Source: an uncultured bacterium (GTDB lineage Bacteria; Calescibacteriota; Calescibacteriia; Calescibacteriales; Calescibacteriaceae). From it: a stretch of DNA of 64,000 nucleotides. Shown piece by piece: positions 713 through 63,933 of the stretch. The DNA lies in contig CALHPK010000009.1 of the NCBI GenBank assembly GCA_938036315.1, forward strand, positions 82,236 to 146,235. Direction: 5' to 3'. The notes beneath the pieces were generated by a model, which was not told where the DNA came from, did not search any database, and saw only the letters and a list, made by a program, of their open reading frames with translations. Made by a program: the position numbers and the translations under genes. Position 1 is the first letter of the stretch, and each line of letters begins with the position of its first letter.

Positions 713-1852
713 ATGCTTGAGATAAGAATGACGAAAGTTATCGATTTTATTGAAAAGGAGATCGAGAAAGGTAACGTAGTTGGGAGAATTGCAGATAAGA
801 TATTTCCACTACTGTTTGTCACCTTAAAAAGCAAGAATCCATCCGATCTGAAAAAAAATATAGCACTGTATCTTCTGACAAGGAGAATACTTGATACTGG
901 AGCTGGCATAACAGCAATAGCTTCATTGGGGACACTTTCAGAGATAGGAATCACAAAAAAGCTATATAACTGGCAGAGCACAGAAAATCTTGCGCAGGAA
1001 TTCTACATAGATAGAGAAAGGCTAGAAACACTTCTTGACTTTCTGGTAAAGGATGGCATTCTTGAAACCGAAACCAGAAACGGGATAAGATTTTACAGAA
1101 TCGGAGATGATTTCAAAAGATTCCTAAAAAATGGGGAAGGAACTATTGCACTACTGTGGTCACAGTTAAAAGCTCTCTCAGAACTCCCCAGAATACTTAA
1201 AACTAAAAAACCATCACAAACTCTTGATATATACAATCTCGAAGGAGACTATAAGTCCCTACTTTTAGGAGTCAATGAATTTTTATACAGAGCTACACAG
1301 GAGCTTATGAGAAAATACGAATTCAAAAATCTAAAAAGAGTTATGATCGGTTCTATGGGAGTGTCTTTTGCGAAAAATATTCAGAAAAGATTTCCTGATG
1401 TTGAAATACATATAGGATGCTACCCACATCTGATAAGAGAAGTTCCAAAACTTATAGAAAAATACAAACTTACTAACGTGAAAAGTATAAAAGAGCATAA
1501 AGGTAGCCCTTCGGAAGATAAGTGGGGTGATGAAGAAAAGAAATATGATCTTGTATTTTTGACTAAGAAGCTAACATTGAGGAATCTCAGCGAGTTTGGC
1601 AATGAATTTCTGAGAAAATCACATAGTGTTCTAGCAAAGGGTGGATATGCTGTTATATGGGAAGCTATTGTCGATGACTCCGGAACAAAAGGTCCTTTGC
1701 TGGAATCGGTTTTAGATATACTCGTGAGCTACTCTGGGAAGAGATGGAAAGAATCTGATTTGAGAAAACATATCCTTTCATTCGGTTTTGAAAAATTCGA
1801 AGTTGTAAGGTGTTTAGGTGGTAGGACAACCTTCGGAATAGCTGTAAAGTAA
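713..1852 (+). CDS. Class I SAM-dependent O-methyltransferase family protein
   Basis: KRVMIGSMGVSFAKNIQKRFPDVEIHIGCYPHL resembles the O-MTase SAM-binding segment (LVDVGGGxG...YPxIKGINFDLP). An N-terminal dimerisation-like region is present and the length suits an O-MTase. Confidence 0.45.
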   Translation: MLEIRMTKVIDFIEKEIEKGNVVGRIADKIFPLLFVTLKSKNPSDLKKNIALYLLTRRILDTGAGITAIASLGTLSEIGITKKLYNWQSTENLAQEFYIDRERLETLLDFLVKDGILETETRNGIRFYRIGDDFKRFLKNGEGTIALLWSQLKALSELPRILKTKKPSQTLDIYNLEGDYKSLLLGVNEFLYRATQELMRKYEFKNLKRVMIGSMGVSFAKNIQKRFPDVEIHIGCYPHLIREVPKLIEKYKLTNVKSIKEHKGSPSEDKWGDEEKKYDLVFLTKKLTLRNLSEFGNEFLRKSHSVLAKGGYAVIWEAIVDDSGTKGPLLESVLDILVSYSGKRWKESDLRKHILSFGFEKFEVVRCLGGRTTFGIAVK

Positions 1853-6103: not shown

Positions 6104-6673
6104 ATGCAACCTGATGCTCTTGAAGAAATAAAACAAGAAGCTCTAAAAATAATAAAGGAGAAAGCTGTCCTGAAGGGAGAATTTATACTCTCATCAGGGC
6201 AGAAGTCTAATTTTTACATCGACATAAAAAGAATTACTCTGGATGGGAAGTTCTTAGACATTATTACTGAAATAATATCAGATTACGTTGCTAAAAACTT
6301 CAAAACTCGTAACTTTGCCGGGATAGAACTCGGAAGCGTTCCAATTGTTGCAGCTACAATCTTAAAAATGAAACAGAAAGGATATAATTCTAAAGGAGTA
6401 ATTGTGAGAAAAGAGTTAAAAAAATATGGAACATCAAGAGAAATAGAAGGATCGGAAGATATCGGTTCAGCAATATTGATAGAAGATGTAATAACAACTG
6501 GGAAAACAACTGCTGATGCAATAGATAAGCTCCTTAGGAATAACATAAAAATAGAAGGAGTAATCACAATCATAGATAGAGGCGGAGGAGAAAATATCAA
6601 ATCGAAAGTCGATAAATTCTTCTCCCTGTTTGAAGCACGGAATGTTCTAGAAGATTCAGAACCTAAAATTTAA
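6104..6673 (+). CDS. pyrE: Orotate phosphoribosyltransferase
   Basis: OPRT signature GEFILSSGQKSNFYID and PRPP-binding loop ILIEDVITTGKT. Confidence 0.65.
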   Translation: MQPDALEEIKQEALKIIKEKAVLKGEFILSSGQKSNFYIDIKRITLDGKFLDIITEIISDYVAKNFKTRNFAGIELGSVPIVAATILKMKQKGYNSKGVIVRKELKKYGTSREIEGSEDIGSAILIEDVITTGKTTADAIDKLLRNNIKIEGVITIIDRGGGENIKSKVDKFFSLFEARNVLEDSEPKI

Positions 6674-23874: not shown

Positions 23875-26800
23875 ATGAAAGAAAATAACTCTCTGAATTT
23901 TCTAAATTCATTAAGGGAATACCCTTACATAGCATTTGAACTCCCTGATAGGTTTTTCCCAAGAGAAATTAGAAATTCTGTTGATATCCCAGATCTACTT
24001 AGTATTCAGAAAGAAACATTCGATTTATTCCTGCAAGAGGGTGTACCAGCAGAAAAGAGGTTAGATGTAGGTATCCACAGAGTTCTCTCAACTTTGAAAT
24101 TCCAGATCCCAGGAAGAAAACTTGAATATGTAGATTACCAACTAGATCCCCCCAGATACACTCCCGAAGAGTGCAAAGCCAGAGAACTTACATATTCATC
24201 AATAATGAAAGTGAAACTAAGGCTAACAATATTCGAAGATGAGAATAATTTAAAACCCAAAGAGATAAGAGAAGAATGGGTATACTTTGGAGAAATCCCC
24301 AGAATGACGCAAAAATGCTCCTTTGTTATATCGGGAACAGAAAAGGTAGTAGTTAATCAGCTACACAAATCTCCAGGAGTATATTTCGAATACGATAAGT
24401 CTAAGCTAAGAACAACTTCAAAATTTGTCCCAACCGCAAGAATAGTCCCATACAAAGGGATGTGGATAGACTTTGATTTCGATCAAAAAGACATTTTATA
24501 CGCTAGATTCCAGAAGAAAAAGAGGTTAAATGCCTGGGTATTCCTACGCGCTATAGGATTAGAGCTTGAAGATCTTCTTGATATATATATAAAAGAAAAA
24601 TTGATGATCACTAAAGAAAATGATAAGCTTGTGGTTCTGAAGGAGATCAACCCAGATATTTTAAGATACCAAAGGACCTCCCGAGATTACCCAGGAGTGC
24701 CAACCGGAAGCAGATTCACAAGAGCTATAATAGACTCATTGATGAAAACGGCTAAGATAATAAAAGATAGACCATTCATAGAAGTTTCAATAGAAGAATT
24801 TGATCCTACCAAAAGAAGTATCTGGGGAACCAGAGTACTAGCCCAGAGCATAACCAAAGACGGCAAGATCATAGCTCCGGTTGCAGAGGAAATAACTCCG
24901 GAACTCCTGATGAAACTTTATGAAAATGATATAACATCGATTGACACAATATGGTACGATGACGTATTCATATCTGGATCAATTATCAGGACATACAAGG
25001 TAATGGAAAAAACACTCAAGATAAAAAGCCCAGAAGAAGCCGCTATTGAATTTTACAGGAGGACAAGACCTGGTGAACCAACCGACCCCAAGGTTATTTT
25101 GAACTCAGTAAGGAACGCATTTATGAACCCGACAAAATTTAATCTTTCACGTGTGGGTAGAATAAGAATATCAAAAAGATTTGATATTGAAGAAACATTC
25201 GAAATAATAATAACGAAAGATGGACAAATCCTCAAAGAAATAAAGGAAAAATTCTTAAAGTTTCAATTGGCCTCGTGCAATTTAGAACTCAAAGACGGAG
25301 CAAAAATCAACCCAGGTGAAAGAATAAAATCAGAGCATGTAAAAAAACTTATAGAAAATGGAATAAAATACATTCCAATATCAGAAGAAGAGTTAAAAGA
25401 ATATGCTCCTACCGAGGATATAAAAGATGAATCAGGAGAAGTAATAATCCCTAAAAAGAGGAATTTTGAAGACCATCATATAAAGATCCTGAAATCAAAA
25501 GGTGAAGAAATTAAATTCAAAGCCTATTGGTACCCCAATAGCTTAACATACCTTGATCTTTACAAGGTGATAGAGTATCTTTTTGACCTAAGAATGGGAA
25601 AAGAAGGTAGAAGTATAGATGATGTGGACAATTTAGCCAACAGACGTGTTAGACCAGTCGGAGAGCTCATAGAAATGGAATTAGCAAGAGGGATAGAAAG
25701 AATAAAAAGATCCATAATAGAAAAATTGAGTACTCCTGAAATTGAAAAAAAATCTTTACGAGATATTGTCAATTTCAAACCAGCTGCATCAGCTCTTAAG
25801 GAATTTTTCGCAATGGGTCAACTTGTCCAGTTCCTTGATAATACTAATCCTCTCTCAGAACTTACACATAAAAGGAGACTTTCAGCTCTGGGAACTGGAG
25901 GGTTGAGAAGAGAAACTGCAGGCATAGAAGCAAGGGATGTTCACTCATCTCACTACGGGAAAATATGTCCAGTGGAAACACCGGAGGGGCAAAATGTCGG
26001 TCTTATAGTTTCTATGGCAGCATTTTCAAGAATAGATGAACTCGGACTACTCCAGACTCCATACAGAAAAGTAATAAATGGCACTGTAGCAGATGAAATA
26101 GAATATATTTCGGCTTTAGATGAAGAGAAACTTCCAATAGCTCCCTGGGGTGTTGAAATTGATAAAAACGGAAAAATAGCACCTGAGGAGTTACCAGCGA
26201 GAGTCGGGACAGAAATCAAACTTGTCAAAAAAGAAGATATAAAGTATATTGATGCGGTTCCATATCAGATTCTAGGAGTTTCTGCCTCGCTAATTCCATT
26301 CTTTGAGCACAACGATTCAAACAGAGCACTAATGGGCTCTAATATGCAACGGCAAGCAGTTCCGCTCCTTTTCACCGAACCGCCATTAGTCGGGACAGAA
26401 ATGGAAAAAATAGTCGCAAAAAATTCTCTGGCAACCGTTACCGCAAGACACGCTGGCATAGTCAAATATGTTGACTCAACAAGGATTGTTATAGAAGTAG
26501 ATGACCCGGATTTTCCGGAGCTCAAAGGAACAGCAGATATATACACTCTTACAAAGTGGTCGCGAACAAATCAATCAACATCGATAAACCAAAGACCCAT
26601 CATTAGATTTGGAGAAAGAGTTAAAAGGGGACAGATAATAGCTGACGGACACGCAACAGCTGGCGGAGAACTTGCTCTTGGTAAAAATGTTCTGGTTGCT
26701 ATAATGAGCTGGCGAGGATATAACTTCGAGGACTCCATAGTAATATCAGAAAGACTTGTATATGATGATGTCTACACATCGGTTCACATCGAAGAGCTTT

Positions 26801-28548
26801 CTATTGACATAAGACAAACCAAACACGGTCCTGAAGAAATAACAAAGGACATCCCTGGGGTCTCCACAGAACTTGTTGCAAACCTAGATGAGGATGGAAT
26901 AGTAAGAGCCGGAGTTTTTGTGAATCCAGGAGATATTCTCGTCGGAAAACTCACACCTGTACCCGAGATGCCACTAACTCCAGAGGAAAGACTCATCAAA
27001 TCAATTTTCGGTAAAGCTGTAGAGAATGTCATTGACACATCCTTAAGGTGTCCACCAGATATAAAAGGTATAGTTCTTTCTGTATTTGTTCACTACAGAA
27101 AAGATGTTGTCAAAGATCAGAGAATAAAGGCGCAGGAGGAGAAGATAATATTGAGAATAAGGAAGGATATGTCTGACGCGGTTGAGATTTTAAGAGGGAA
27201 ACTCTGGGAGGGTATAGGAAAATATCTGCAGGATATAAAAGTAATATCTCCTATAAAAATCGATAAAAATATCTTCAATGATAATACAAAAGAATTCAGA
27301 GAAGCTTTAGTGGCAAAGCTAAAATCTTACAGAGAAACCTCGAGCATGGTAAAGTTCCTCGAATCCCTCCAAGGAAATATAGATGAAGAGTCTATCAAAA
27401 GGATATCAGAAGCTATAAAATCCTTTGAAGTAGAAGAAAAAACATTGAAAAAAATATTTGAGGATAAGATAGCAGAAGTTAGAAAGGGAGAAGAACTCCC
27501 TCCAGGGGTACTCAAAAGAATAAGAATATTTGTAGCTTCAAAGAGAAAGATTCAAGTTGGAGATAAATTATCTGGGAGGCATGGAAATAAAGGAGTTGTA
27601 TCAGTAATACTACCTCAAGAAGATATGCCATTCCTGCCAGATGGGACCCCTGTTGATATCATTCTAAGCCCACTTGGTATTCCATCAAGAATGAATATAG
27701 GACAACTTTTTGAGCTTGAACTTGGCTGGATATCAAAGGAACTTGGACGTAAAATAGCACAAGTCGTAGACAAACTTCAGGAAGAATTCATAATAAAAAA
27801 TAAAGCTCAAATAAAGTCAAAAATCATGGAAATGCTCACGGATGGAGAGGATAAAACCGGAATTATAGAGAAATTTTCCAAATATATAGATGGATTAAAT
27901 GATGAGGATTTCGCAAAATTTGTTATAAGCTGCGAAAAACTCGGAGTAAGATTTAGCTGCCCACCATTTTTAGGGATGACTGAGGAGGAATTAAAAGAAA
28001 TTGCAAGAAGAGTTGGGATTCCAGATACTTTCTCGGTTGAGCTCAGAGATGGAATAACAGGTGATAAATTTGATCAACCGGTTGCAGTTGGCTACATGTA
28101 CATTATGAGATTGGTTCATATGGTAGAAGATAAAATACATGCAAGGTCCACTGGAACCTACTCGCTGATAACGCAACAACCGCTTGGAGGTAAATCAAGA
28201 GGTGGTGGGCAAAGGTTAGGAGAAATGGAAGTGTGGGCTCTTGAGGCATATGGAGCAGCATACACTCTTCAGGAGATGCTCACCGTAAAGTCTGATGATA
28301 TCTCCGGCAGAGAAAGAACTGTTCTGAATATCATCGAAGGGAAGCCGGTATACACTCCATCTATCCCCGAATCTTTCCTTGTCCTTGTCAAGGAGCTGCA
28401 GGCAATGGGTTTTGACGTGGAATTACTATCCAGACGAGATCTTGAGGAATTAGAAGCCAAAAAAGAGGAAACTCAAGAAGGGAAAGAAATTTTTATTCCT
28501 TTCTCTAAAAAAAGTGGATATGAAAGAGTACGAAATGATAAAAAATAA
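23875..28548 (+). CDS. rpoB: DNA-directed RNA polymerase subunit beta (1557 aa, with lineage-specific insertions)
   Basis: Conserved beta blocks from the N-terminal LLSIQKETF through the C-terminal GGQRLGEMEVWALEAYGAAYTLQE. It is longer than E. coli beta (1342 aa). Confidence 0.97.
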   Translation: MKENNSLNFLNSLREYPYIAFELPDRFFPREIRNSVDIPDLLSIQKETFDLFLQEGVPAEKRLDVGIHRVLSTLKFQIPGRKLEYVDYQLDPPRYTPEECKARELTYSSIMKVKLRLTIFEDENNLKPKEIREEWVYFGEIPRMTQKCSFVISGTEKVVVNQLHKSPGVYFEYDKSKLRTTSKFVPTARIVPYKGMWIDFDFDQKDILYARFQKKKRLNAWVFLRAIGLELEDLLDIYIKEKLMITKENDKLVVLKEINPDILRYQRTSRDYPGVPTGSRFTRAIIDSLMKTAKIIKDRPFIEVSIEEFDPTKRSIWGTRVLAQSITKDGKIIAPVAEEITPELLMKLYENDITSIDTIWYDDVFISGSIIRTYKVMEKTLKIKSPEEAAIEFYRRTRPGEPTDPKVILNSVRNAFMNPTKFNLSRVGRIRISKRFDIEETFEIIITKDGQILKEIKEKFLKFQLASCNLELKDGAKINPGERIKSEHVKKLIENGIKYIPISEEELKEYAPTEDIKDESGEVIIPKKRNFEDHHIKILKSKGEEIKFKAYWYPNSLTYLDLYKVIEYLFDLRMGKEGRSIDDVDNLANRRVRPVGELIEMELARGIERIKRSIIEKLSTPEIEKKSLRDIVNFKPAASALKEFFAMGQLVQFLDNTNPLSELTHKRRLSALGTGGLRRETAGIEARDVHSSHYGKICPVETPEGQNVGLIVSMAAFSRIDELGLLQTPYRKVINGTVADEIEYISALDEEKLPIAPWGVEIDKNGKIAPEELPARVGTEIKLVKKEDIKYIDAVPYQILGVSASLIPFFEHNDSNRALMGSNMQRQAVPLLFTEPPLVGTEMEKIVAKNSLATVTARHAGIVKYVDSTRIVIEVDDPDFPELKGTADIYTLTKWSRTNQSTSINQRPIIRFGERVKRGQIIADGHATAGGELALGKNVLVAIMSWRGYNFEDSIVISERLVYDDVYTSVHIEELSIDIRQTKHGPEEITKDIPGVSTELVANLDEDGIVRAGVFVNPGDILVGKLTPVPEMPLTPEERLIKSIFGKAVENVIDTSLRCPPDIKGIVLSVFVHYRKDVVKDQRIKAQEEKIILRIRKDMSDAVEILRGKLWEGIGKYLQDIKVISPIKIDKNIFNDNTKEFREALVAKLKSYRETSSMVKFLESLQGNIDEESIKRISEAIKSFEVEEKTLKKIFEDKIAEVRKGEELPPGVLKRIRIFVASKRKIQVGDKLSGRHGNKGVVSVILPQEDMPFLPDGTPVDIILSPLGIPSRMNIGQLFELELGWISKELGRKIAQVVDKLQEEFIIKNKAQIKSKIMEMLTDGEDKTGIIEKFSKYIDGLNDEDFAKFVISCEKLGVRFSCPPFLGMTEEELKEIARRVGIPDTFSVELRDGITGDKFDQPVAVGYMYIMRLVHMVEDKIHARSTGTYSLITQQPLGGKSRGGGQRLGEMEVWALEAYGAAYTLQEMLTVKSDDISGRERTVLNIIEGKPVYTPSIPESFLVLVKELQAMGFDVELLSRRDLEELEAKKEETQEGKEIFIPFSKKSGYERVRNDKK

Positions 28549-28622
28549 AAAGGATAAAGAATAAAAGGAAATAAAAGGTAAGATAAAATTAATTTAAAAT
28601 AAAAAATTTCAAGGGAAGAAAG

Positions 28623-31600
28623 ATGGAAACGAACAGAGAAGTAGTAAGAAGCGTAAACGATATAGAGGCAGTTCGAATATCTATTGCATCTCCAGAGAAA
28701 ATATCACAGATAGCATATGGAGAGATTCGGCGCCCTGATACAATAAACTACAGAACTGGCAAACCAGAAAAAGAAGGATTATTCTGTGCTGTAATTTTTG
28801 GGCCAATAAATGATTTTGAATGCCTGTGCGGCAAATACAAAGGGCAAAGATACAGAGGAACGGTTTGCGAAAGATGTGGAGTTGAGGTAACATCAAAAAG
28901 AGTAAGAAGAGAAAGAATGGGCAAGATAACTTTAAGCTACCCCGTCACCCATATCTGGTTCCTAAAAGTAGCACCCAATCCCATATCGTCTCTACTAGAT
29001 ATGTCTCAAAGAGATATAGAGGATATTGTAAATTTTAGCCTTTGGATTGTAGTAGAACCTCCAGAAAAAATATACGAACTGAGCGTATCAGAACAGCACA
29101 TCGAAAAACTCATAAAGGCCCTGAAACAATTTTCAGCCTTAGTAAGAGAAGTCGACTTTGAAAAAAAATACTCTCAACACATCGAACAGATAAAAAGATT
29201 TGAAACAGTCCTTAAAGAGATAGCTATAAGAAAAATCTTAATCAAATACGCATTCGATCCAGAAATAAACAAAAGCAGAGATCCTCAGAAGTTATGCAAC
29301 GGAATAATAAAGGAATTATCGAAGTTCAAAAACTTCAAAGAAGCAGAAGATATAGTTGAATCCATCCAGGAGATAGAAGATAAACTAAAAACAATAGAAG
29401 ATGAAAAAAGATCTGAAAGATTTGATGAGATAAAGGATAAAATAATAGCAAATGCTATCAAATTCCCTGAATATGTGATAGTTCACAGAGAAGTCATAGG
29501 ACTGTTCGTTGCGCACTTTCCGAATATATTCCTACCCACAACAATTTTAGGTGGAATAGGTGGAGATACTATAAAAGGATTCGATGAGAAAAATCTATCA
29601 GTTGAGAGGTTTAGCTTTGGAAAAGATCAAATAGCTTTGGTCGTCCACAAGAAAGATTCCCCAAAATACACTGATCCATCAAAGCATAAGGTATCAAATT
29701 TTGTTGTAGGCTCTGGTGCAGAAACTATAAGATATATGCTCAAGAATTTAGATCTAAATAGACTCTCAGAATTGATCAGAGTGGAGATAGAAAACATAAA
29801 TAAGAATCATAGAGCAGAAGAATCATCCAGATTCATCAGACTTTCAAGAAGGCTAAGAATAGTAAATGAGTTTAAAGGTTCAGAAAACAGACCAGAATGG
29901 ATGATAATGGAAGTGATTCCTGTGCTACCACCTGAACTAAGACCTTTGGTTATTCTGGAAGAAGGAAGAATAGCAAGGTCAGACCTTAACGAATTCTACC
30001 GGATGATAATCCAGAGAAATTCAAGATTAACAAAGATGAAAAGATTATTGGAACTTGGCATAGGGATTCCAGATGCAGTTATTGAGAACGAAATTAGGTT
30101 ACTTCAGGCAGCAGTTGATTCCCTTATAGATTCATCAAAGGCAAAAAAACCTCAGGCCTCAAGAACTGGAAGACCTCTCAGATCACTTGCCGATATAATA
30201 AAGGGAAAATATGGGAGATTGAGACAGAATTTACTTGGAAAAAGAACTGATTTCTCAGCAAGAAGTGTGATAGTTGTTGGTCCGGATCTCAGATTGCATC
30301 AGATAGGAGTTCCAAAAGAAATAGCTCTGGAGATATTCAAACCATACATTATATGGTGGCTCATAAAGAAAAAAGGATTGGTTACCTCCGTAAAAGAGGC
30401 AAGAAAGCTATTTGAAGAAAAGAAATATTCAGCAATAAGTGGCAGAATCGATGAACAAACAAAGTGGTTATTCTACGCACTTGAAGATATTATAAAAGAG
30501 AAACTTATACTTGCTAATAGAGCTCCGACACTTCACAGGATGAACATTCAGGCATTCGAAATAGTCCTGACAGAAGGTAAAGCTATAAGACTGCACCCTT
30601 TAGTCTGCACAGCATACAATGCAGATTTTGATGGAGATCAGATGGGACTATTCCTCCCCTTATCCATACAAGCTCAGACGGAATCCAGAATCCTTATGCT
30701 ATCAACACATCAGATACTCTCACCAGCTCATGGAAACCCAATAGTATATCCAACCCAGGATCAAGTTATGGGGATATTCTGGATGACAAAAGAAAAAATA
30801 GGTGAGAAGGGAGAAGGGAGATTCTTCTCTTCAGCGAGAGAGGTTTACATAGCATATGAAAACAAAGAGGTATCACTCCATGCAATAATAGAGTGCTTGA
30901 TCACGTGTTTGTGTAATAAATGTCATGGAAAAGAAAAAATCTACAGAACAACACCCGGAAGAGTAATATTCTTTCAGGATGTACTTCCTAAAAAACTTTG
31001 TTTTGAACTTATAAACAAACCAATTGGTAAAAAGGAGATAATAGATCTAGTGGCCATATCAAGACAAATAGCTGGCGAGAAAGAAACGGTTATCTTCCTT
31101 GACAAGATGAAGGATATAGGATTTGAAATGCTAACACGCTCAGGCTTTACGCTTGCAGTTCACCACTTTGTCATTCCAGAAGAGAAAGGGAAAGTTCTTG
31201 AAGAAGCAGAAAGAATGGTCAAAAACATAGAAGAAAAATATGCAAAAAGACTTATTACTTGGGGAGAAAGATACAACAGAATAACCCAAATATGGCTTGA
31301 GTATACTGAAAAAATAGGTAAATTAGCAAGAGAAAAGGTCTCGTGGACAGAAATCGAAATCGGAGGAAGGAAAGAAAAAGTTATGTCTGACAATCCAGTC
31401 TTTTTGGCGGTTCACTCTGGAGCTCGTGGATCATACGAACAGATAAAGCAAATCTCCGGTATGAGAGGTGTAATGGCAAAACCCGGTGGCGAACTTATAG
31501 AATTTCCGATAAAGCACAACTTAAGGGAAGGATTAACCCCCCTTGAATACTTTATATCAACTCATGGTGGAAGAAAAGGAATAGCGGATACAGCACTTAA

Positions 31601-33440
31601 AACCGCAAAAGCAGGTTACCTGACCAGGAAACTTGTAGATGTAGCTCAAGAAATTATAGTAAAAACTGAAGACTGCGGAACTAAAAAGTTCATACGTATG
31701 ACCCCCCTCACATACGGAGGGGAAGTTCTCAGACCACTATCGCACAGAATATTCGGCAGGGTAGCCGCGGATGATATAATTTCTCCTGAAACAGGAGAGA
31801 TAATAGTCAAAAAAGGAGAATACATAACTAAAGAAAAAGCAACTCTTATAGAGGAACTCGGCATAGAAGAGGTAAGTATAAGGAGTGTCTTAACTTGCGA
31901 AGCTGAAGATGGAATCTGTGCAAAATGCTACGGATGGGCTTTAGCATCATGGGAAGAAGTAACTTTAGGAGAAGCTGTGGGAATAATCGCTGCACAAAGT
32001 ATAGGAGAACCAGGTACCCAGCTCACAATGAGAACATTCCACTACGGCGGAATAGCAGCCCTTACAGAAAAAGGAGATATAGTGGCAAATCACGATGGGA
32101 AAGTTAAATTCAAAGATTTTAAATATATAGAAGTCGAAATATCTCAAGAGGAAATGGAAAAACTCGGACTGACCAAAGAAGATATCATAGAAGGTAAGAA
32201 AATTCTCAGAGTTACATCAAGACTAGGAACAATAGAAATCGTATCAAAAAAGGAACGCACTCTTGAAAGATATGAAGTAAAATACGGAGCAGCAATATTT
32301 GTAAGACCAGATCAGGAAGTAAAAAGAGGACAGAAAATAGCAGTCTGGAACCCATATGCAAACATAATCTTGACACACACCAGCGGTAGAGTCAAATTCA
32401 AAGATATAGTCCCCGGAGTCACAGTTATTGAAAAGAAAGAAGAAGTAACTGGTAAAGTCGTCAGAACTATTATAGAGCCAATCGGGAAAGCAGCCTCCAC
32501 TATGAGACCCTCTATAATCGTCACCACACCCGATGGGAAAGAAATAACCTACCCACTACCAGTGAGAGCTACAATATCTGTAGAAGAAGGAGCGAGCGTC
32601 AAAGCTGGAGAGGAAATAGCAAGAGTAGAAACAGGTTACGCAAAGACGAAAGATATAACAACAGGATTGCCGAAAGTCGAAGAGTTCTTCGAAGCAAGAA
32701 ATCCAAAGGAAGAAGCAGTAGTATCAGAAATAACAGGCAGAGTCGAGAAAATAGAAGATATAAAAGGTGGCAAAAAGAGAATAATAATAAAGCCTCTTGG
32801 TAAAGCATCGATGAAAGTCCAACAACGTTCATACGACATTCCTAAAAACAGACACATAATCGTAGTCTTGGGAGATATCGTAAATGCTGGTGATGCATTA
32901 ACAGATGGCGTCCCCAATCCGAAATCTCTACTAAAAATAAAAGACCCAGACCATGTAGGTCTTTTCCTACTAAATGAGATACAAAAGATATACTCATCTC
33001 AGGGAATAGATATAAATGATAAGCACTTTGAAGTTATAATCAGGCAGATGATAAAATGGGTAAAGATAAAGAATCCAGGGGATAGTTCCTTCATCCCGGG
33101 TGAAATAGTAGACAAGTTCAAGGTCAAACAGGAAAACGATAAACTAAGAAAAATGGGCAAGAAACCAGCTATCTTTGAATATACAATTTTGGGCATCAGC
33201 AAAGCTTCTTTATACTCTGACTCATGGATCGCAGCCGCGTCATTCCAAGAAACTCCAAAAGTTCTCACCTCAGCAGCTTTAGCATCAAAAATAGATAAGC
33301 TAGAAGGTATAAAAGAAAACGTTCTCATTGGCAAACTCATCCCAGCAGGATCAAACTTTCCAGCTTACAGAAACATAGGAATTGAAACAGAAAAAATGCA
33401 AATCACCGAAGAACTAGTAGAAAGAGAATTGAAAAGATAA
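28623..33440 (+). CDS. rpoC: DNA-directed RNA polymerase subunit beta' (1605 aa, with lineage-specific insertions)
   Basis: N-terminal Zn finger CLCGKYKG...CERCGV, NADFDGDQM catalytic motif, and the trigger-loop/bridge-helix regions. Confidence 0.97.
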   Translation: METNREVVRSVNDIEAVRISIASPEKISQIAYGEIRRPDTINYRTGKPEKEGLFCAVIFGPINDFECLCGKYKGQRYRGTVCERCGVEVTSKRVRRERMGKITLSYPVTHIWFLKVAPNPISSLLDMSQRDIEDIVNFSLWIVVEPPEKIYELSVSEQHIEKLIKALKQFSALVREVDFEKKYSQHIEQIKRFETVLKEIAIRKILIKYAFDPEINKSRDPQKLCNGIIKELSKFKNFKEAEDIVESIQEIEDKLKTIEDEKRSERFDEIKDKIIANAIKFPEYVIVHREVIGLFVAHFPNIFLPTTILGGIGGDTIKGFDEKNLSVERFSFGKDQIALVVHKKDSPKYTDPSKHKVSNFVVGSGAETIRYMLKNLDLNRLSELIRVEIENINKNHRAEESSRFIRLSRRLRIVNEFKGSENRPEWMIMEVIPVLPPELRPLVILEEGRIARSDLNEFYRMIIQRNSRLTKMKRLLELGIGIPDAVIENEIRLLQAAVDSLIDSSKAKKPQASRTGRPLRSLADIIKGKYGRLRQNLLGKRTDFSARSVIVVGPDLRLHQIGVPKEIALEIFKPYIIWWLIKKKGLVTSVKEARKLFEEKKYSAISGRIDEQTKWLFYALEDIIKEKLILANRAPTLHRMNIQAFEIVLTEGKAIRLHPLVCTAYNADFDGDQMGLFLPLSIQAQTESRILMLSTHQILSPAHGNPIVYPTQDQVMGIFWMTKEKIGEKGEGRFFSSAREVYIAYENKEVSLHAIIECLITCLCNKCHGKEKIYRTTPGRVIFFQDVLPKKLCFELINKPIGKKEIIDLVAISRQIAGEKETVIFLDKMKDIGFEMLTRSGFTLAVHHFVIPEEKGKVLEEAERMVKNIEEKYAKRLITWGERYNRITQIWLEYTEKIGKLAREKVSWTEIEIGGRKEKVMSDNPVFLAVHSGARGSYEQIKQISGMRGVMAKPGGELIEFPIKHNLREGLTPLEYFISTHGGRKGIADTALKTAKAGYLTRKLVDVAQEIIVKTEDCGTKKFIRMTPLTYGGEVLRPLSHRIFGRVAADDIISPETGEIIVKKGEYITKEKATLIEELGIEEVSIRSVLTCEAEDGICAKCYGWALASWEEVTLGEAVGIIAAQSIGEPGTQLTMRTFHYGGIAALTEKGDIVANHDGKVKFKDFKYIEVEISQEEMEKLGLTKEDIIEGKKILRVTSRLGTIEIVSKKERTLERYEVKYGAAIFVRPDQEVKRGQKIAVWNPYANIILTHTSGRVKFKDIVPGVTVIEKKEEVTGKVVRTIIEPIGKAASTMRPSIIVTTPDGKEITYPLPVRATISVEEGASVKAGEEIARVETGYAKTKDITTGLPKVEEFFEARNPKEEAVVSEITGRVEKIEDIKGGKKRIIIKPLGKASMKVQQRSYDIPKNRHIIVVLGDIVNAGDALTDGVPNPKSLLKIKDPDHVGLFLLNEIQKIYSSQGIDINDKHFEVIIRQMIKWVKIKNPGDSSFIPGEIVDKFKVKQENDKLRKMGKKPAIFEYTILGISKASLYSDSWIAAASFQETPKVLTSAALASKIDKLEGIKENVLIGKLIPAGSNFPAYRNIGIETEKMQITEELVERELKR

Positions 33441-38141: not shown

Positions 38142-39152
38142 CTAATCAATTATCTGTTTTGCTGCTTTTTTAAGCCTGTTCATAATCCCAAGACCGACTC
38201 CCTCCTCCTCTACGGATTCAAAAATGATGACATCATATTTTTCACCAAAAGTAATGAGTATGTCGAAGAGATTTCTTGCAACTTCCTCGAGTGTCCGCCC
38301 AGCTGAGATAGTGTCTAATCCGAACTTCTCTTTTACCCTAAGGGCCCTCTCCTGATCTCCAAAGACCACAACGACAATATTTTGTGACAATCTTTCTTCT
38401 CTCATTTTTTCTATAGCTGAAAAAAGTTTTTCCTTTGATGCAACTATAAGTTCTGCATTGGGACTGTAATGTTGATACTTAAGCCCCGGGCTTTTTGGCC
38501 TCTCACTTCCAGTGCAGTGAACCAATCTTTTTCCGATCACTTTTTCAATAGCTTTAGGTTCAATCATGCCCGGGCGAAGTAGTAAAGGCTCTAATGGAGA
38601 GGTCAGATCAACCACGGTTGACTCTATACCTATTTTTATTTTCCCTTCAAGTACAAAAACTTTATCCCCAAAATAGTGTCTTATATGTTCTGCTTTTGTC
38701 GCTGAAGGTTTTCCAGCTGGGTTAGCACTTGGAGCAGCTATGGGAACACCTGCCAGGTCAATAAGCTTTAGGGCAACTTTGTGAGATGGCATTCTTACTG
38801 CAACTGAGTCTAACCCAGCAGTAACAATATCAGGCACAGTCAGATTCTTCTTAAGAACAATTGTTAATGGACCGGGCCAGAAACTATCGATGAGCTTATA
38901 TGCTTGCTCTGGAATATCTACGGCAATCAAAGGCAGGTCCTCTTTTTTTGATATATGAACTATGAGTGGGTTGTCAAGAGGTCTTCCCTTCAAACTGAAA
39001 ATCTTTCGAACCGCCCTTTCGTCAAAGGTGTTTGCACCCAGACCATAAACTGTCTCTGTAGGGAAAGCAACAACTTCACCTTTCCTTATCAATTCCGCAG
39101 CCTTAGCTATCTGCTCCTCATTCGCTTCTGCTATCTCCTCCTCAACCCACAC
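38142..39152 (-). CDS. L-threonylcarbamoyladenylate synthase (Sua5/TsaC, with C-terminal Sua5 domain)
   Basis: The YrdC domain contains VVAFPTETVYGLGANTF. At 336 aa the length includes the Sua5 C-terminal domain. Confidence 0.8.
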   Translation of the reverse strand: MWVEEEIAEANEEQIAKAAELIRKGEVVAFPTETVYGLGANTFDERAVRKIFSLKGRPLDNPLIVHISKKEDLPLIAVDIPEQAYKLIDSFWPGPLTIVLKKNLTVPDIVTAGLDSVAVRMPSHKVALKLIDLAGVPIAAPSANPAGKPSATKAEHIRHYFGDKVFVLEGKIKIGIESTVVDLTSPLEPLLLRPGMIEPKAIEKVIGKRLVHCTGSERPKSPGLKYQHYSPNAELIVASKEKLFSAIEKMREERLSQNIVVVVFGDQERALRVKEKFGLDTISAGRTLEEVARNLFDILITFGEKYDVIIFESVEEEGVGLGIMNRLKKAAKQIID

Positions 39153-39307
39153 GATTTGTGAAAATCTTGGAAAAACTATGAACCCCCTCGAAAATCTCTA
39201 AAATTTCAACTTTCAATAATCTATAAATCTAAAACTAAAAATTTAATTAATGATTTTTAATAAATTTGTAAATTAAATATAACTAAATAATCTGAGGAGG
39301 TTATGAG

Positions 39308-40693
39308 ATGGGAAAAAAGATAGAGGCTAAGATAATTGAGAGTTCTCCTGAACCACTGAAAGTAGCACTAAAAGCCCTGGCGGAGGTAAGGGGAATAAGC
39401 GAGTCAAAAATTATAGATCATATAAAGGACATACTTATTGAAACCGCAAAAGATATTTTAGGAGATGGTGATTACGATGTTGAAGTAGATCAAGATAACT
39501 TCATTATCAAAAGAAGAAAAAGAGTCGTTGAAGTTGTGAAAAATCCGAATTACGAAATTTCTCTTGAAGAGATAAAAAAGATAGATCCAAGAGCCGAACC
39601 CGGCGATGAAGTCGATGAAATTATACCATTTTCAGCCTTCGGCAGACGCGGGGCACAAAAAGCAAAATCTTTGCTCACAATGCAACTTACCGGCGCAATA
39701 GAAGAAGCCATATTCGAAGAATATTCAAAAAAGAAAGGTCAGTTAATCACAGGAATAGTTAAAGAAGTTGAGTTTAACAGGTTCACCCGTAGCAAACAAG
39801 TATTTGTAAACCTCGGCAGAAACATAATAGGAACCTTGGGTCCAGAAGACTTACTTCCTCAGGATATGAGTAAAATAAAAGAAGGAGACAGTATAAAAGC
39901 AATCATCAAAGAGGTGAGAAAGAAAAAGGAGGGGAAATTTGAAAGAACAGAAATAATCCTATCAAGAACAGATCCGAAATTTGTTGAGGAGATACTAAGA
40001 AAGAATGTGAGTGAAGTTGAGCATGGGGTGGTAAAAATCAAAAAAATAGTTAGAGAACCGGGGATGAGGAGCAAAATTCTTGTCTACTCCAATGATCCAT
40101 CAATAGACCCAGTCGGAACCTGCATAGGAATTAAGGGCATCAGAATAAAGAACATAATGCAGGAACTAGGGGGCGAAAGAATAGATATAATTGCATACAC
40201 AACCGACATCCAAAAATTGATAATGAACTCCTTGGGAATAACAAAAGCCAGCGGGATCTCTATAAGAAAAACCCAAGATTTTACTGAAGCTATTGTCTTT
40301 GTGCCGGATGATATTTTAGCTATGGCTGTTGGTAGGAAAGGAGTAAATGTTAAACTTGCCTCCGAGCTGCTCGATATGAAAATCATCGTCAGGTCTGAAA
40401 CAGAAAGAGAAAGAATAAAAGCTATGCTACCAGAGTTTTATAAACAGTTCGGACTTGGAGAAAAACAATCTCAAATACTCTGGGAACACGGTTTCAAAAC
40501 GCTCGAGGATATAGCTTTGGCACCACTTGAAAAACTGAAAGGCATCCCAGGAATGACTGAGGAAGAGCTAACAAAACTCTGGCAGGGAGCAAGAAAACTA
40601 TATTTTGAAAAACTGAAAGAAATTAGCTCCAGAGAAGCGAAAGAAGAAGAAAAAGAAGAAGAAAAAGGAGCTGAAGCAGGACAAGAACAATAA
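39308..40693 (+). CDS. nusA: Transcription termination/antitermination factor NusA
   Basis: N-terminal domain, an S1 domain, two KH domains (GTCIGIKGIRIKNIMQELGGERIDII; ILAMAVGRKGVNVKLASELL) and an acidic C-terminal tail. SD GGAGG upstream. Confidence 0.9.
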   Translation: MGKKIEAKIIESSPEPLKVALKALAEVRGISESKIIDHIKDILIETAKDILGDGDYDVEVDQDNFIIKRRKRVVEVVKNPNYEISLEEIKKIDPRAEPGDEVDEIIPFSAFGRRGAQKAKSLLTMQLTGAIEEAIFEEYSKKKGQLITGIVKEVEFNRFTRSKQVFVNLGRNIIGTLGPEDLLPQDMSKIKEGDSIKAIIKEVRKKKEGKFERTEIILSRTDPKFVEEILRKNVSEVEHGVVKIKKIVREPGMRSKILVYSNDPSIDPVGTCIGIKGIRIKNIMQELGGERIDIIAYTTDIQKLIMNSLGITKASGISIRKTQDFTEAIVFVPDDILAMAVGRKGVNVKLASELLDMKIIVRSETERERIKAMLPEFYKQFGLGEKQSQILWEHGFKTLEDIALAPLEKLKGIPGMTEEELTKLWQGARKLYFEKLKEISSREAKEEEKEEEKGAEAGQEQ

Positions 40694-41131
40694 ATGATAG
40701 GAAAACAAGGGCTCTTTGAAATCATCTCTACCGAAATAGATTGGAACATAGACTATGAAAAGCTTATCTTTGGTTGTAGAGCAAAAATAAAGGTGAGGAT
40801 TGGCGACAGGATAAAATTTGGGTTTGCTTCATCAAAGAATGGACAAATTAACGCGTTTGATATTGCCCTACGGAATGTGCTAACAGAATTCTTCCCACAA
40901 ATAGAATGGATAAACCTCACAGATTATCAAGTTGAACTTGTAGGAAAAGAAAAGGGAACCCACGGATATGTCAAAGTTAAGGTTGTCGTCGAATCCCGAG
41001 AAAGTAAAAAGTTTGAGATGGAATCAATGGGGGCTGATCTCGTTGCGGCAAGTATAGAAGCCCTCGCTGGAGCTTACGAAATGGCACTCCAGGAAATCTT
41101 GTCAAAAGAAAAAGAAATGAAAATAACATAA
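40694..41131 (+). CDS. Stand-alone LeuA-type allosteric (LeuA_dimer-like) regulatory domain protein, translationally coupled to nusA
   Basis: GFASSKNGQINAFDIALRNVL and LTDYQVELVGKEKGTHGYVKVKVVV...GADLVAASIEALAGAYEMAL match the isopropylmalate/homocitrate synthase C-terminal regulatory domain pattern (ASGxGNGPVDAxFxAI; L.DY...G.G.DA.A.V.V...G.G.DIVEAS.xAyLnAl). The start ATG overlaps the nusA stop (TAAATG). Confidence 0.45.
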   Translation: MIGKQGLFEIISTEIDWNIDYEKLIFGCRAKIKVRIGDRIKFGFASSKNGQINAFDIALRNVLTEFFPQIEWINLTDYQVELVGKEKGTHGYVKVKVVVESRESKKFEMESMGADLVAASIEALAGAYEMALQEILSKEKEMKIT

Positions 41132-41197: not shown

Positions 41198-42559
41198 ATG
41201 GGAGTCTCTATATTCAAAACTATAAGGTCACCAGTGATAAAAATAATGTATCTTTTACTTGCAGTCTCATTCTTCATAGGATTCGGCATCCTCGGATCAC
41301 TATCTTTCAAACCAGGATTGCCAGAGATAAAAATTGGAGATAGCAAAGTAAAGTATGATGAATTTATGCTCGTTATGAAAGATATGGGGGGAGAAGATTT
41401 ACCTGAGGAAACAAGAGCTATGCGCGCTTTTGATATGCTTGTCCTAAGAAAAGCAATCTCCTCCCTTATGGAAAATGAAATGAAGATCAATATAGATAAA
41501 ACTTCAATTTTTGGAATATTAGCTTCACCAGCCGGAATAAGATCAAGGCAAGATTACAACAATCTACTCAGGAGTCTTGGAGTGACACAAAGCTCATTCG
41601 AAAATTATCTTGTAGATTCATATCTTTTTGCAAAACTTCAAGATATCATTGTAAGAGTAGAGACAGCGGGTGATTTTACAGAATTTCAAAATTTTGTGAC
41701 AAGATACCTTGGCTCACGCCAGCTCTCGATAGCAGAAATAGATAAATCAAAATTTAGCGTAAAATATCATGAAAAAGAAATGAAAAAATATTACCTCATA
41801 AATCAACATGAATTCAAAGTCCCAGAAAAGAGAGAATTCTGGATAGCAAAGTTTAGCTCAGAGGAAAAAGCCAGATCATTTTTCGATGAAAATAAAAATA
41901 CAAAATTTCAAAGCTTTGAAGAATTTGAAAAGATAGTAGCTAATAAAGAAGGGAAAGCAACAACAACCATTATAGGCAAAGAAAGAGGAGTTCAAGATCT
42001 CCAATTAGCCCCATTTTTTGCTGTGCCTGAAGGTACTATCTCACCGCCACTGCAGGCTCGAGATGAGTGGTGGATAGTGCATGTGAACAAAGTATTTCCC
42101 GAAAATATAATGAGCTTTGAAGAAGCTCTCCCTAAAATAAAACAAAGGTTCTACACAGAGCAAGTCAAAAATGAACTAAGAAAAATCATATCACAAAAAA
42201 ATCTAGACTCACTCGATGAATTCGAAAGATTCATTTCAAAATATTCAGAAAATATATACAGAGAAACAATTCCAATCCATTTAGATTTCTACCCTCACAT
42301 AGGAGTCCAGCAGGAGCTTACCCCATACCTATCAATAGAGAAAGAAGATTTTGTATTCCCGATACCAGTGGAGAACAAAGATAAAGTTTTTGTCGTGTTT
42401 ATTGGCAAATTTTTCCCAGCTCCTGAAGAAAAATTTTCTCAAATGCTCATCAGTGATGTTGAAAGAATAATTCAAGGGATTGTAGCATCATATCTACCCA
42501 GAATTAAAGTGAAACCAGCATCAAAGGAAGAAGCTATTAAAAAGCTAACAGGTATGTAA
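41198..42559 (+). CDS. Membrane-anchored periplasmic chaperone, PpiD/SurA-like (tentative)
   Basis: An N-terminal TM anchor is followed by a long soluble domain. The resemblance to PpiD/SurA chaperone-domain architecture is only weak. Confidence 0.25.
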   Translation: MGVSIFKTIRSPVIKIMYLLLAVSFFIGFGILGSLSFKPGLPEIKIGDSKVKYDEFMLVMKDMGGEDLPEETRAMRAFDMLVLRKAISSLMENEMKINIDKTSIFGILASPAGIRSRQDYNNLLRSLGVTQSSFENYLVDSYLFAKLQDIIVRVETAGDFTEFQNFVTRYLGSRQLSIAEIDKSKFSVKYHEKEMKKYYLINQHEFKVPEKREFWIAKFSSEEKARSFFDENKNTKFQSFEEFEKIVANKEGKATTTIIGKERGVQDLQLAPFFAVPEGTISPPLQARDEWWIVHVNKVFPENIMSFEEALPKIKQRFYTEQVKNELRKIISQKNLDSLDEFERFISKYSENIYRETIPIHLDFYPHIGVQQELTPYLSIEKEDFVFPIPVENKDKVFVVFIGKFFPAPEEKFSQMLISDVERIIQGIVASYLPRIKVKPASKEEAIKKLTGM

Positions 42560-42601: not shown

Positions 42602-43705
42602 CTAAAAGGAATATGGATATCTGAAGATTCCATCCTCAGTGATGATCGATGAGATGAGCTCTGGAGGAGTTATATCAAATACGTAGTTTATAACATTGGT
42701 TTCATCATGAGTAATTTTTACCCCAAAAATTTCTTTCACCTCACGTGGGTCTCTTTGCTCCAAGGGGATAGTATCAGAGCTAACATCTATAGTTGTTTTT
42801 GGAGCAAGAACATAAAAAGGGATGGAAAAATGCTTTGACAAAATAGCAAGCATAAGAGTTCCTATTTTGTTCGAAACCGTTCCATCTTTGAGAATCCTAT
42901 CTGCCCCCGTCAGAACACAACTTATGTGGGGGGATGATTTTGACATAACAAATGCAGAAGCGGAATCAACTATTAGCTTGAACTTTATTTTCTCTCTTAT
43001 AAGCTCCCACGTTGTGAGCCTTGCCCCTTGCAAAAATGGTCTTGTCTCCAGAGAAATAACTTCTATGTCCTTACCGAGCTTTTTGACCGCATACTTTATG
43101 GCCGAAAAAGCAGTACCCCATCCCCCGGTTGCTAAACTTCCAGTGTTACAGATAGTAAAAACAGTTCCTTCATCTGGAATGAGCTGAGCACCATTTTTCC
43201 CTATAAGGTAGCAGGATTTGAAGTCCAAAAACCAAATCTCCAAGGCTTTTCTTCTCATTCTTTCGACCAAATCACTGCCTTGAGAACTTACAAACTCTTC
43301 CTCCATATCTTGAAGAGCTCGAAAAAGATTGTAAGCAGTCGGGCGCGAATCAAGTATTACGTTCTTTATTTCACAGAACACCTTATAATCTACTTTCTGC
43401 CCTTTCTCTACCCTTTTTTTCAATCCAAGCCAAACCCCGAAAGCGGCTGATATTCCTATTGCTGGCGCCCCCCTGACGACCATATTCTTTATGCAAAGCG
43501 CTACATCCCGTTCATCTCTGCAGATAACCCATTCTTCCCTCAAGGGCAGATACCTCTGATCTAAGAACTTGATGCAGTCATCACACAACTCAAACCAGGT
43601 ATGTCTTCTCCCACCCTCTGTCTCTTCCTCAAATATCCTACTTACTTCATCACTCATCGAATCTACTCTCAATGCTAAATCCTCCCTTGCAGTCATCCTT
43701 ACCAA
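42602..43705 (-). CDS. mtnA: Methylthioribose-1-phosphate isomerase / eIF-2B alpha-beta-delta family
   Basis: GAPAIGISAAFGVWLG and VLTGADRILKDGTVSNKIGT are typical of MtnA/eIF2B-like proteins. 367 aa. Confidence 0.65.
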   Translation of the reverse strand: MVRMTAREDLALRVDSMSDEVSRIFEEETEGGRRHTWFELCDDCIKFLDQRYLPLREEWVICRDERDVALCIKNMVVRGAPAIGISAAFGVWLGLKKRVEKGQKVDYKVFCEIKNVILDSRPTAYNLFRALQDMEEEFVSSQGSDLVERMRRKALEIWFLDFKSCYLIGKNGAQLIPDEGTVFTICNTGSLATGGWGTAFSAIKYAVKKLGKDIEVISLETRPFLQGARLTTWELIREKIKFKLIVDSASAFVMSKSSPHISCVLTGADRILKDGTVSNKIGTLMLAILSKHFSIPFYVLAPKTTIDVSSDTIPLEQRDPREVKEIFGVKITHDETNVINYVFDITPPELISSIITEDGIFRYPYSF

Positions 43706-62565: not shown

Positions 62566-63933
62566 ATGTTAATCTTACCCAAAGAGCTTCTCACATTCAA
62601 AAAAGTAGGAAGAAGAGTTTCGCTGAATTTTGCTACAGAAGATGATGTGAATGAAATCCTCCAGCTATGGCATGAATCAAAAGGTTTAACTCTCAGAGAG
62701 ATGAGAAAAAAATTTTCAGAACTTGAAGACTTCGCAAATTACAAATTTGTAAGAGGACTCCTTTATATCCTCTCAAAAATTTCAGACTTTGAAAGCTCTG
62801 AAGAGAATGCTTACAAAATCAGGGAATTCCTATTCTCCTTTGGTCCAGTTTTAGAAGAAGATAGGAGGAACAAAATTCTGCTTGAGGCTGAAAGAGTCTT
62901 TGGATTCAGAATCTCAGACGATAAAATGTGGGGGGACCTCGATTCCTTCAAAGTCTTCCGGAGTCTGAAAATGGACTTCACCCCGCTCAAGATTGCGGGC
63001 TTATATAACCTGGCACTTATCCTTGGTACTTCATCCGTTTCCAACAAGATAAGAATAAAAACTTCAAAGAATATAAGGAATATCCTTTACTATACCAGAA
63101 AACTCGGGCTTATGTATGAAGTTGACCGCGGAGAAATCATCGTATTTGGTCCAGAAAGCATAATCAGAAATTCCCAAAGGTACGGGTTAGCCTTTGCAAG
63201 GCTCATAAGCAAGATCCTGAAACAAGGTGATTTCGAAATTTCTATAGAACTACCGCAAGGAATCCTAAATCTGTCTGACTCAGATATTCATAATTTTATT
63301 TTCTTAGAAGATGAAGAAGAAAAGTTCGATTCCTCGTATGAAGAAAGCTTCTTCAGGTTAGTCAGAGAAGTTTTTCCATCAGTTAAGATACTACGCGAGC
63401 CAGAAGTAGATATATCAGATGCAGGGATTTTTATCCCCGATTTCAAACTCATATCTGGACAAAACCACATTTTCGTGGAAGTCATAGGATTCTGGACTCC
63501 CGAATATCTTCTTCGCAAAGCCGAAAAATTGAAAAGGTTCAAAAAGAAGATTCTCTTGATAGCTTCCGAAGAGTTTGCCCTATCTCAGCTAAATCCCAAA
63601 GAGCAGAACTCAGGTATTAGCAATAATCCAGACATAAGAATAATCACCTTCAAAAGAGAATTACCATATCTTGAGATTATCAAATTCTTGAAATCCAATC
63701 TAGCGGTGGAAGTGGGGAGAGCCCAGAAAAAAGCTCTGATTCCTGAGTACATACTTGAGAGCTTATCTGCAAAACTTCACGATGGCATGGACATCCGGTC
63801 AGCAAAAGATATAATAGCATCAGAAATAGATATCGATTTCAAGGAAGTTCTAAAACATCTGAACTACTCAATAGAGTGGACTTCTCTTGTCCCACCTGTG
63901 GGCAGGATAAGGAAAAAACAGGACAAATTCTGA
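62566..63933 (+). CDS. DUF790/Bax1-like putative nuclease (PD-(D/E)xK-like C-terminal region)
   Basis: An N-terminus MLILPKELLTFKKVGRRVSL, as I recall for DUF790/Bax1 proteins. A C-terminal IFIPDF...FVEVIGFW segment resembles the PD...E core of PD-(D/E)xK nucleases, but the canonical Lys is not evident. The assignment rests on memory only. Confidence 0.3.
   Translation: MLILPKELLTFKKVGRRVSLNFATEDDVNEILQLWHESKGLTLREMRKKFSELEDFANYKFVRGLLYILSKISDFESSEENAYKIREFLFSFGPVLEEDRRNKILLEAERVFGFRISDDKMWGDLDSFKVFRSLKMDFTPLKIAGLYNLALILGTSSVSNKIRIKTSKNIRNILYYTRKLGLMYEVDRGEIIVFGPESIIRNSQRYGLAFARLISKILKQGDFEISIELPQGILNLSDSDIHNFIFLEDEEEKFDSSYEESFFRLVREVFPSVKILREPEVDISDAGIFIPDFKLISGQNHIFVEVIGFWTPEYLLRKAEKLKRFKKKILLIASEEFALSQLNPKEQNSGISNNPDIRIITFKRELPYLEIIKFLKSNLAVEVGRAQKKALIPEYILESLSAKLHDGMDIRSAKDIIASEIDIDFKEVLKHLNYSIEWTSLVPPVGRIRKKQDKF

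Follow-up and report, generated by a model that had tools for sequence, protein, structure and literature searches.

We identified a free-standing allosteric domain protein of the LeuA/CimA type, encoded directly behind nusA in a 64-kb window (the whole stretch of DNA analysed here, 64,000 nucleotides) from an uncultured bacterium of the Calescibacteriaceae. That the 145-aa open reading frame (ORF) is a real gene for a complete regulatory (R) domain can be stated with very high confidence. Together with its orthologues it represents a novel form of a known domain family: free-standing, diverged in sequence and confined to a candidate phylum. We favour, with moderate confidence, the reading that the protein is a cytoplasmic homodimeric small-ligand sensor of CimA R-domain descent, acting in trans and co-expressed with the gene of a PpiD-like chaperone, and that it lies behind nusA only through a local rearrangement. 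The genes and the junction concerned are:

39308-40693, plus strand: nusA, 461 aa, with NusA_N, S1, KH and one HhH domain and an E/K-rich tail
40691-40696, plus strand: TAA/ATG junction of nusA and the ORF, read from the sequence, with a 0-nt spacer and no overlap
40694-41131, plus strand: the ORF, a free-standing LeuA/CimA-type allosteric (regulatory) domain protein, 145 aa, pI 5.6
41198-42559, plus strand: PpiD/SurA-family parvulin-type PPIase-chaperone with an N-terminal membrane anchor (Pfam SurA_N_3 and Rotamase_2)
42602-43705, minus strand: mtnA-like gene (IF-2B family), convergent; the ORF-ppiD-mtnA block is also found in Ca. Calescibacterium

To establish the identity of the ORF we combined profile searches with a predicted structure. 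The Pfam family PF08502 (LeuA_dimer) matched residues 29-131 with 42.3 bits (E 8.6e-11), above the gathering cut-off of 24.9 bits. Among NCBIfam models the best match was citramalate synthase (TIGR00977), in its C-terminal part (positions 414-519 of 526, 50.2 bits), whereas the bacterial LeuA model TIGR00973 (leuA_bact) reached 14.5 bits only. When a profile of the ORF and its orthologues was aligned by hhalign to a profile of the full-length synthase (CimA), the probability was 99.6% (E 1e-23) over columns 392-522 of 540; the ORF thus spans the regulatory domain in full, first strand included. Pfam and hhalign thus both place the protein in the LeuA_dimer superfamily. A phmmer search with the single ORF protein against PDB sequences found no match, unlike the profile search, which did reach 3f6g.

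The AF2 model (pLDDT 90.6, pTM 0.84, from a 126-sequence alignment) consists of two units in the order beta-beta-beta-alpha / beta-beta-beta-alpha, with strands at residues 9-20, 25-36 and 39-47, a helix at 51-64, strands at 74-83, 92-100 and 106-113 and a second helix at 116-144. These units can be superposed on solved regulatory domains: the best twelve Foldseek matches in the PDB were all either the LiCMS regulatory domain (3f6g/3f6h; TM 0.76-0.80 on the target) or M. tuberculosis LeuA (1sr9, 3fig, 3hps, 3hpz), and the matches beyond the best twelve were structurally poor. The initial annotation had assigned the ORF, from the letters, to the C-terminal regulatory/dimerisation domain of LeuA-type enzymes and had proposed a profile comparison with PF08502; the assignment was borne out by Pfam, hhalign, AF2 and Foldseek alike, and the two motifs that it quoted are indeed those at the N-termini of the two helices. 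Its mention of homocitrate synthases as bearers of the domain was inexact, as these enzymes are described as being without it (PMC9860122). Nor can the leucine binding of LeuA be transferred to this protein, which is nearest to the citramalate-synthase (isoleucine-sensing) type and has remodelled ligand loops.

The protein is not itself an enzyme of the CimA/LeuA kind: no HMGL-like TIM barrel is present in the 145 aa, and none of the six lineages that have the ORF was found to carry an HMGL-like gene in the 6-8 kb around it (window, L001-L017). By its sequence it is predicted to be cytoplasmic, with neither a signal peptide nor a transmembrane segment. The clade-invariant LIFGC (residues 24-28, window 40763-40777), which stands behind an acidic N-terminus, was considered as a lipobox, but the lack of a signal peptide and the position of the segment, which is strand 2 of the domain, rule out a lipoprotein. 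In the AF2 model strands 1-2 are built from residues 1-27, an acidic stretch, Cys28 is invariant in the clade where canonical domains have S/A/C, and the maximum 19-residue hydropathy, 1.14, is located in the C-terminal helix.

We then mapped the ligand site known from LiCMS on to the ORF by way of the profile's HMMER alignment with chain 3f6g_B (offset 389). The isoleucine pocket of LiCMS, which we take to comprise Tyr430, Asp431, Leu451, Tyr454, Ile458, Thr464, Val468, Pro493' and Gln495', is said to have been reported by Zhang et al. in 2009 in Biochem J 421:133; all nine residue identities sit at the predicted positions of chain 3f6g_B. The core of the pocket is kept in the ORF, with LiCMS L451/Y454/I458/T464/V468 corresponding to L75/Y78/L82/T89/V93, and the rim or specificity positions are changed (Y430 to I52, D431 to N53, P493 to A114 and Q495 to L116). 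These rim positions fall in two loops:

40829-40861, plus strand: loop 1, at the N-terminus of helix 1 (residues 46-56, SSKNGQINAFD), in place of the canonical AEGNGPVNALD; equivalent to LiCMS Tyr430/Asp431 by the 3f6g alignment
41021-41056, plus strand: loop 2, at the N-terminus of helix 2 (residues 110-121, ESMGADLVAASI), in place of the canonical VGVSxNIIEASW; equivalent to LiCMS Pro493/Gln495 by the same alignment

Column statistics for 114 canonical sequences and 12 clade members revealed 27 positions at which the canonical set is conserved to 80% or more, whereas all or nearly all of the 12 clade members have another residue there, itself invariant within the clade. Residues conserved at 100% in the canonical set are G48, P51, R81 and W107, which become K/R, Q, E and I/L/F in the clade, respectively; V52 (99%) becomes I, H42 becomes L/F, E118 becomes A and D126 becomes Q/T/G. 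The canonical GxGP(V)xA loop motif at the N-terminus of helix 1 is not kept, with K/R48, Q51 and I52 in 12 of 12 clade members. The clade has signatures of its own, namely IDWxIDYExLIFGC, S-K/R-D/N-G-Q-I-x-A-F-D and E-x-x-G-A/S-D-L-V-A, and the two most conserved of the clade-specific motifs coincide with the loops at the helix N-termini which, in LiCMS, build the ligand site across the interface of the dimer. LiCMS is itself off consensus (G-D-G-G-Y in the loop, and F for W) yet binds isoleucine, so departure from the consensus does not imply that binding is lost; only the change at G48 is without precedent among the sequences compared. We infer that the ligand pocket of the ORF is retained but retuned. 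Several of the lost surface residues (R81, W107, E118 and D126) may once have contacted the accessory and catalytic domains, a task that a free protein does not have. Given the replacement of the first glycine of the GxGP loop by K/R and of R81 by E, the ligand site could have been inactivated or repurposed.

Orthologues of the ORF were sought in protein clusters and in genomes. An exhaustive HMMER search over 1.84 billion cluster representatives gave 558 matches, among which a single cluster (P0003, from a 50%-identity clustering) was close, at 58% identity, all others being at about 38% or less. A word-indexed profile search recovered 14 clusters (90% identity level) whose proteins have 145-150 aa and share 48-100% identity with the ORF. 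Outside the window species the orthologues are 48-58% identical and were found only in Calescamantes-type bacteria: among species-representative genomes the clade-specific peptides occurred only in Candidatus Calescibacterium sp. and Ca. C. nevadense, and 'bacterium HR19' is a further clade member. Three giant proteins (P0013, P0019 and P0070; 2046-4661 aa) that scored E of about 1e-9 to 1e-7 against the ORF were rejected as homologues, as they had accumulated weak matches over 6-8 stretches each; P0013 and P0070 are DUF11/DUF7927 repeat surface proteins, whose summed repeat scores make them false positives. In their source records the clade proteins are labelled '2-isopropylmalate synthase' or '(R)-citramalate synthase'; these labels are wrong, and such enzymes they cannot be.

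The ORF is under purifying selection. By the Nei-Gojobori method, dN/dS was 0.04 between loci L003 and L009 (dS 0.65), 0.12 between L013 and L016, and 0.15-0.29 in more distant, unsaturated pairs. Start, length and stop are conserved across the 14 clusters, and the GC content of the ORF is that of its neighbours. It might nevertheless be asked whether the ORF is a broken fragment of cimA or leuA, or spurious, since most of the other short LeuA_dimer proteins that we viewed in context are such fragments (of six, four stand right behind an HMGL-like ORF and a fifth is at the end of a contig). This has next to no probability for the present clade and is refuted by the dN/dS values of 0.04-0.12, the conserved gene ends and the alignment of the complete domain from its first strand, and no HMGL-like sequence stands upstream in any lineage.

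Short LeuA_dimer proteins are numerous in the searches, mostly on 1-5 kb contigs, and we viewed six of them in context. All six retain the canonical motif (AEGNGPVNALD). Four (L018, L023, L024 and L025) directly follow an HMGL-like (and HCS_D2) ORF and are thus split or frameshifted cimA genes; a fifth is at a contig end beside ilvD. The sixth (P0135, 145 aa, L027 395-832) lies 75 nt downstream of the 3' end of ruvA on a 1.1-kb contig and provides, independently of the clade, a second regulatory domain that is truly detached. These ORFs, named 'alpha-isopropylmalate synthase regulatory domain-containing protein' by NCBI, likewise carry the domain as a separate ORF, but they are canonical in sequence and mostly split cimA, whereas the Calescamantes proteins have diverged, are encoded in a pair with a ppiD-like gene and are never linked to an HMGL-like gene. 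In L018, a Manganitrophus MAG, the AA_kinase, SurE and phosphomutase genes are split too, which suggests assembly frameshifts. No study of a free-standing member came to light in the literature searched under LeuA_dimer, PF08502 and the name used by NCBI.

The junction with nusA was then inspected. The identity of nusA is beyond doubt, with Pfam matches to NusA_N, KH_5 and HHH_5 and a match to TIGR01953 (298.8 bits). Its stop codon TAA occupies 40691-40693 and the ATG of the ORF 40694-40696, so that the direct adjacency reported in the initial annotation stands, although the start is beside the stop codon with a 0-nt spacer and not on it, as had been written. A strong Shine-Dalgarno sequence (GAGGAGG) is present upstream of nusA; the sole such motif before the ORF is AGGA, ending 12 nt upstream of the ATG. 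No terminator-like site or hairpin was found between nusA, the ORF and the following gene. Co-transcription of nusA and the ORF in the window genome is likely, and translation of the ORF through termination-reinitiation after nusA is plausible. A promoter scan gave sites no more numerous than in shuffled sequence, and an Rfam scan of the window and five related loci found no riboswitch, T-box or leader upstream of the ORF, its single match being a tRNA in L009. As had been noted, ylxR, an L7Ae-like gene and infB are absent after nusA: the next genes are the ORF and the PpiD-like gene, and no ORF scanned in the 64-kb window matched the IF-2 family. In its region (window 38142-40693) nusA stands outside the usual rimP-nusA-infB arrangement and is divergent from a Sua5/TsaC gene, with a 155-nt AT-rich spacer. 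In a 99%-identical strain (L001 6603-8000) NusA has 465 aa against 461 aa in the window (39308-40693); the indel is in the E/K-rich C-terminal tail right before the TAA/ATG junction, which is unaltered.

Comparison of the six lineages revealed six different genes upstream of the ORF. NusA precedes it only in the window species, that is, in the window and the 99%-identical strains L001, L002 and L026. The upstream gene is methylmalonyl-CoA mutase in L003-L008 and L010, a divergent NUDIX gene beside an integrase and a tRNA in L009, a divergent mlaE in L013-L015, argJ in HR19 (L011) and diadenylate cyclase in L016. By tblastn, no NusA was found within 6-8 kb either side of the ORF in the five other lineages. 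A metagenome scan with NusA for loci in relatives returned only NusA of 31-35% identity from unrelated organisms, which has no bearing on the relatives. The ORF proteins of L003 and L009 are 95% identical, yet their upstream genes already differ, which points to rapid turnover on this side. In L009 (6283-7815 and 1794-1866; Ca. Calescibacterium sp. PSS.bin.4) a phage-type integrase and the NUDIX gene lie upstream with the tRNA a few kb off, and the altered upstream side may be a mobile-element insertion.

The downstream side is stable. Orthologues of the PpiD-like protein (42-47% identity; transmembrane segment at residues 13-31 in the window protein) are encoded directly downstream of the ORF in five of the six lineages (loci L003-L009 and L013-L017), with a gap of about 16-130 nt. 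Beyond this gene the lineages diverge into a convergent mtnA, a TPR gene or clpP. The exception is HR19, in which a 555-aa polytopic membrane protein is encoded downstream and the ORF has no ppiD-like neighbour; the pairing has been seen in one phylum only. Between the window and Ca. Calescibacterium the ORF protein is 58% identical, on a par with MtnA (59%) and better conserved than the PpiD-like protein (47%). As the downstream gene is conserved and the upstream gene is variable, the conserved unit is the ORF with its ppiD-like gene. In the window the rearrangement breakpoint lies exactly at the 5' end of the ORF and has put it behind nusA. The adjacency to nusA is therefore very probably an incidental, species-specific result of local rearrangement, to judge from the loci compared.

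The protein is a free-standing paralogue of the allosteric domain at the C-terminus of citramalate/2-isopropylmalate synthases. In the mechanism that we prefer, it would form a homodimer like its parent domain and bind an amino-acid- or keto-acid-like small ligand at the dimer interface, and its ligand-dependent rigidification would be read out in trans by another protein, in a manner reminiscent of stand-alone ACT regulatory subunits, e.g. IlvH. We give an even chance to the protein being a ligand-binding dimer. The isolated CimA regulatory domain binds isoleucine specifically and forms dimers or tetramers unaided (PMC13381585). The ORF would most likely be co-expressed with the downstream gene for the membrane-anchored PpiD-like chaperone, its sole conserved genomic partner, and the abutment on nusA would give co-transcription, and probably translation by termination-reinitiation, with no partnership that is conserved. 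Nearly all of a PpiD-type protein is periplasmic, which makes it difficult to imagine that it directly touches the cytoplasmic ORF protein. By guilt-by-association, some neighbours point weakly toward branched-chain amino-acid metabolism: in Ca. Calescibacterium the upstream methylmalonyl-CoA mutase, in L013 a class-IV aminotransferase whose gene is the second one upstream of the ORF, and in the window Liv-type (BCAA) permease genes 8 kb from the ORF.

A ligand-independent dimerisation or scaffold module that has lost small-molecule binding, for instance a factor in the cytoplasm that is expressed along with the PpiD-like chaperone and serves the biogenesis of membrane or secretory proteins, is doubtful in our estimate, though it would account for the replacement of the invariant glycine of the GxGP loop by K/R, of the proline by Q and of R81 by E, and for a pair with the ppiD-like gene that has held together at 16-130 nt despite rearranged flanks. 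Against it, the strongest clade-specific conservation falls on the two loops of the LiCMS ligand site and the hydrophobic pocket is kept, which is typical of a retained, retuned site; LiCMS departs from the consensus at several of the same positions and still binds Ile, and HR19 does without the ppiD-like neighbour. The kept pocket residues would suit a trans-acting regulatory subunit for an unlinked CimA-, LeuA- or homocitrate-synthase-like enzyme that has no regulatory domain of its own. The best family match is citramalate synthase, a regulatory part on a separate ORF is common among split cimA genes in assemblies, and separate subunits of the IlvH type are an established precedent (PMC13381585). 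We consider this unlikely, however, as no HMGL-like gene lies near the ORF in six lineages and as R81, W107, H42, E118 and D126, near-invariant in enzyme-attached domains, are replaced, which is expected if the contacts with accessory or catalytic domains have been lost. In addition, Calescamantes (EM19) are described as thermophiles of hot springs that live heterotrophically and take up peptides and amino acids (PMC4791363), and the window holds BCAA permease genes; the papers on Calescamantes report nothing on branched-chain amino-acid biosynthesis.

The initial annotation had raised a metabolite-sensing partner of the transcription machinery, and had made conservation of the ORF after nusA in relatives the point on which this would turn. 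In such a scheme the protein would be translationally coupled to NusA for stoichiometry and would link amino-acid status to elongation or termination by RNA polymerase. The TAA/ATG abutment of an ORF that has no well-spaced Shine-Dalgarno sequence, a nusA without its usual operon partners, the lack of a terminator-like site between the two genes and a very weak Foldseek likeness to dsRBD/S5-like folds (ranks 13-17, rmsd above 16 A) are in its favour. Those matches are structurally poor, however, and linkage to nusA is not conserved, being limited to the window species and its 99% strains amid rapid upstream turnover (L003/L009), while in the remaining five lineages a different gene stands upstream and NusA is missing from the 6-8 kb around the ORF. 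That the protein works together with NusA or the transcription machinery is thus unsupported, and we regard it as very unlikely. A broader proposal, to which we give a small chance, is that the CimA-derived allosteric domain was freed from its enzyme in Calescamantes and now senses a metabolite on its own, through a ligand loop that has been remodelled and become more polar, controlling a non-biosynthetic process, either envelope or secretory protein biogenesis with its PpiD-like neighbour or, in the window species, transcription via NusA. If this repurposed sensor were real, it would be the first LeuA-type regulatory domain to serve as a general signalling module, like ACT or GlnB-like domains.

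For the small-ligand sensor that we favour, three known systems offer comparison. With the R domain of LiCMS (Leptospira interrogans, residues ~390-516, 3F6G/3F6H) the ORF shares the fold, the domain boundaries and the pocket core; it differs in having no catalytic TIM barrel or accessory domain attached, in its identity of about 20%, in the K/R at the first loop glycine throughout its clade and in a long C-terminal helix that runs to residue 144. The regulatory domain of M. tuberculosis LeuA (1SR9/3FIG) has the same two beta-beta-beta-alpha units and the ORF matches PF08502 above the gathering score, but the ORF is free-standing, its sequence match is far weaker than that to CimA, and leucine specificity is not to be assumed. 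The ACT-type subunits IlvH/IlvN of acetolactate synthase are a functional analogy only, as small dimeric ligand-binding proteins acting in trans (PMC13381585); their fold is unrelated, and no partner enzyme is linked to the ORF. For IlvH the gene of the partner enzyme is adjacent and known.

Allosteric domains such as ACT, RAM and PII occur both fused to enzymes and as free signalling proteins. To our knowledge, work on the LeuA/CimA regulatory domain has dealt with it only within the enzyme that carries it. A detached, selected and lineage-restricted clade with retuned loops suggests that this fold, too, can become an autonomous sensor. The protein could further offer a compact thermostable ligand-binding module of the kind lately used for biosensors (PMC13381585). 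For annotation the lesson is twofold: clade members are mislabelled as synthases, and most other 'stand-alone' LeuA_dimer ORFs are split genes.

Elsewhere in the window, four large ORFs have no Pfam family at E<=1e-5:

6670-8703, minus strand: 677 aa
12030-14414, plus strand: 794 aa
58150-62178, minus strand: 1342 aa, adjoining and divergent from a DUF790 gene (62566-63933)
713-1852, plus strand: 379 aa

Two unusually long ORFs, of 1557 and 1605 aa, lie adjacent to each other at 23875-33440. The 1605-aa ORF carries RNA polymerase Rpb1 domains 1-5 (rpoC) in the gene table of L001, and the 1557-aa ORF is presumably rpoB. E. coli RpoB and RpoC are shorter than these two proteins, which suggests lineage-specific insertions.
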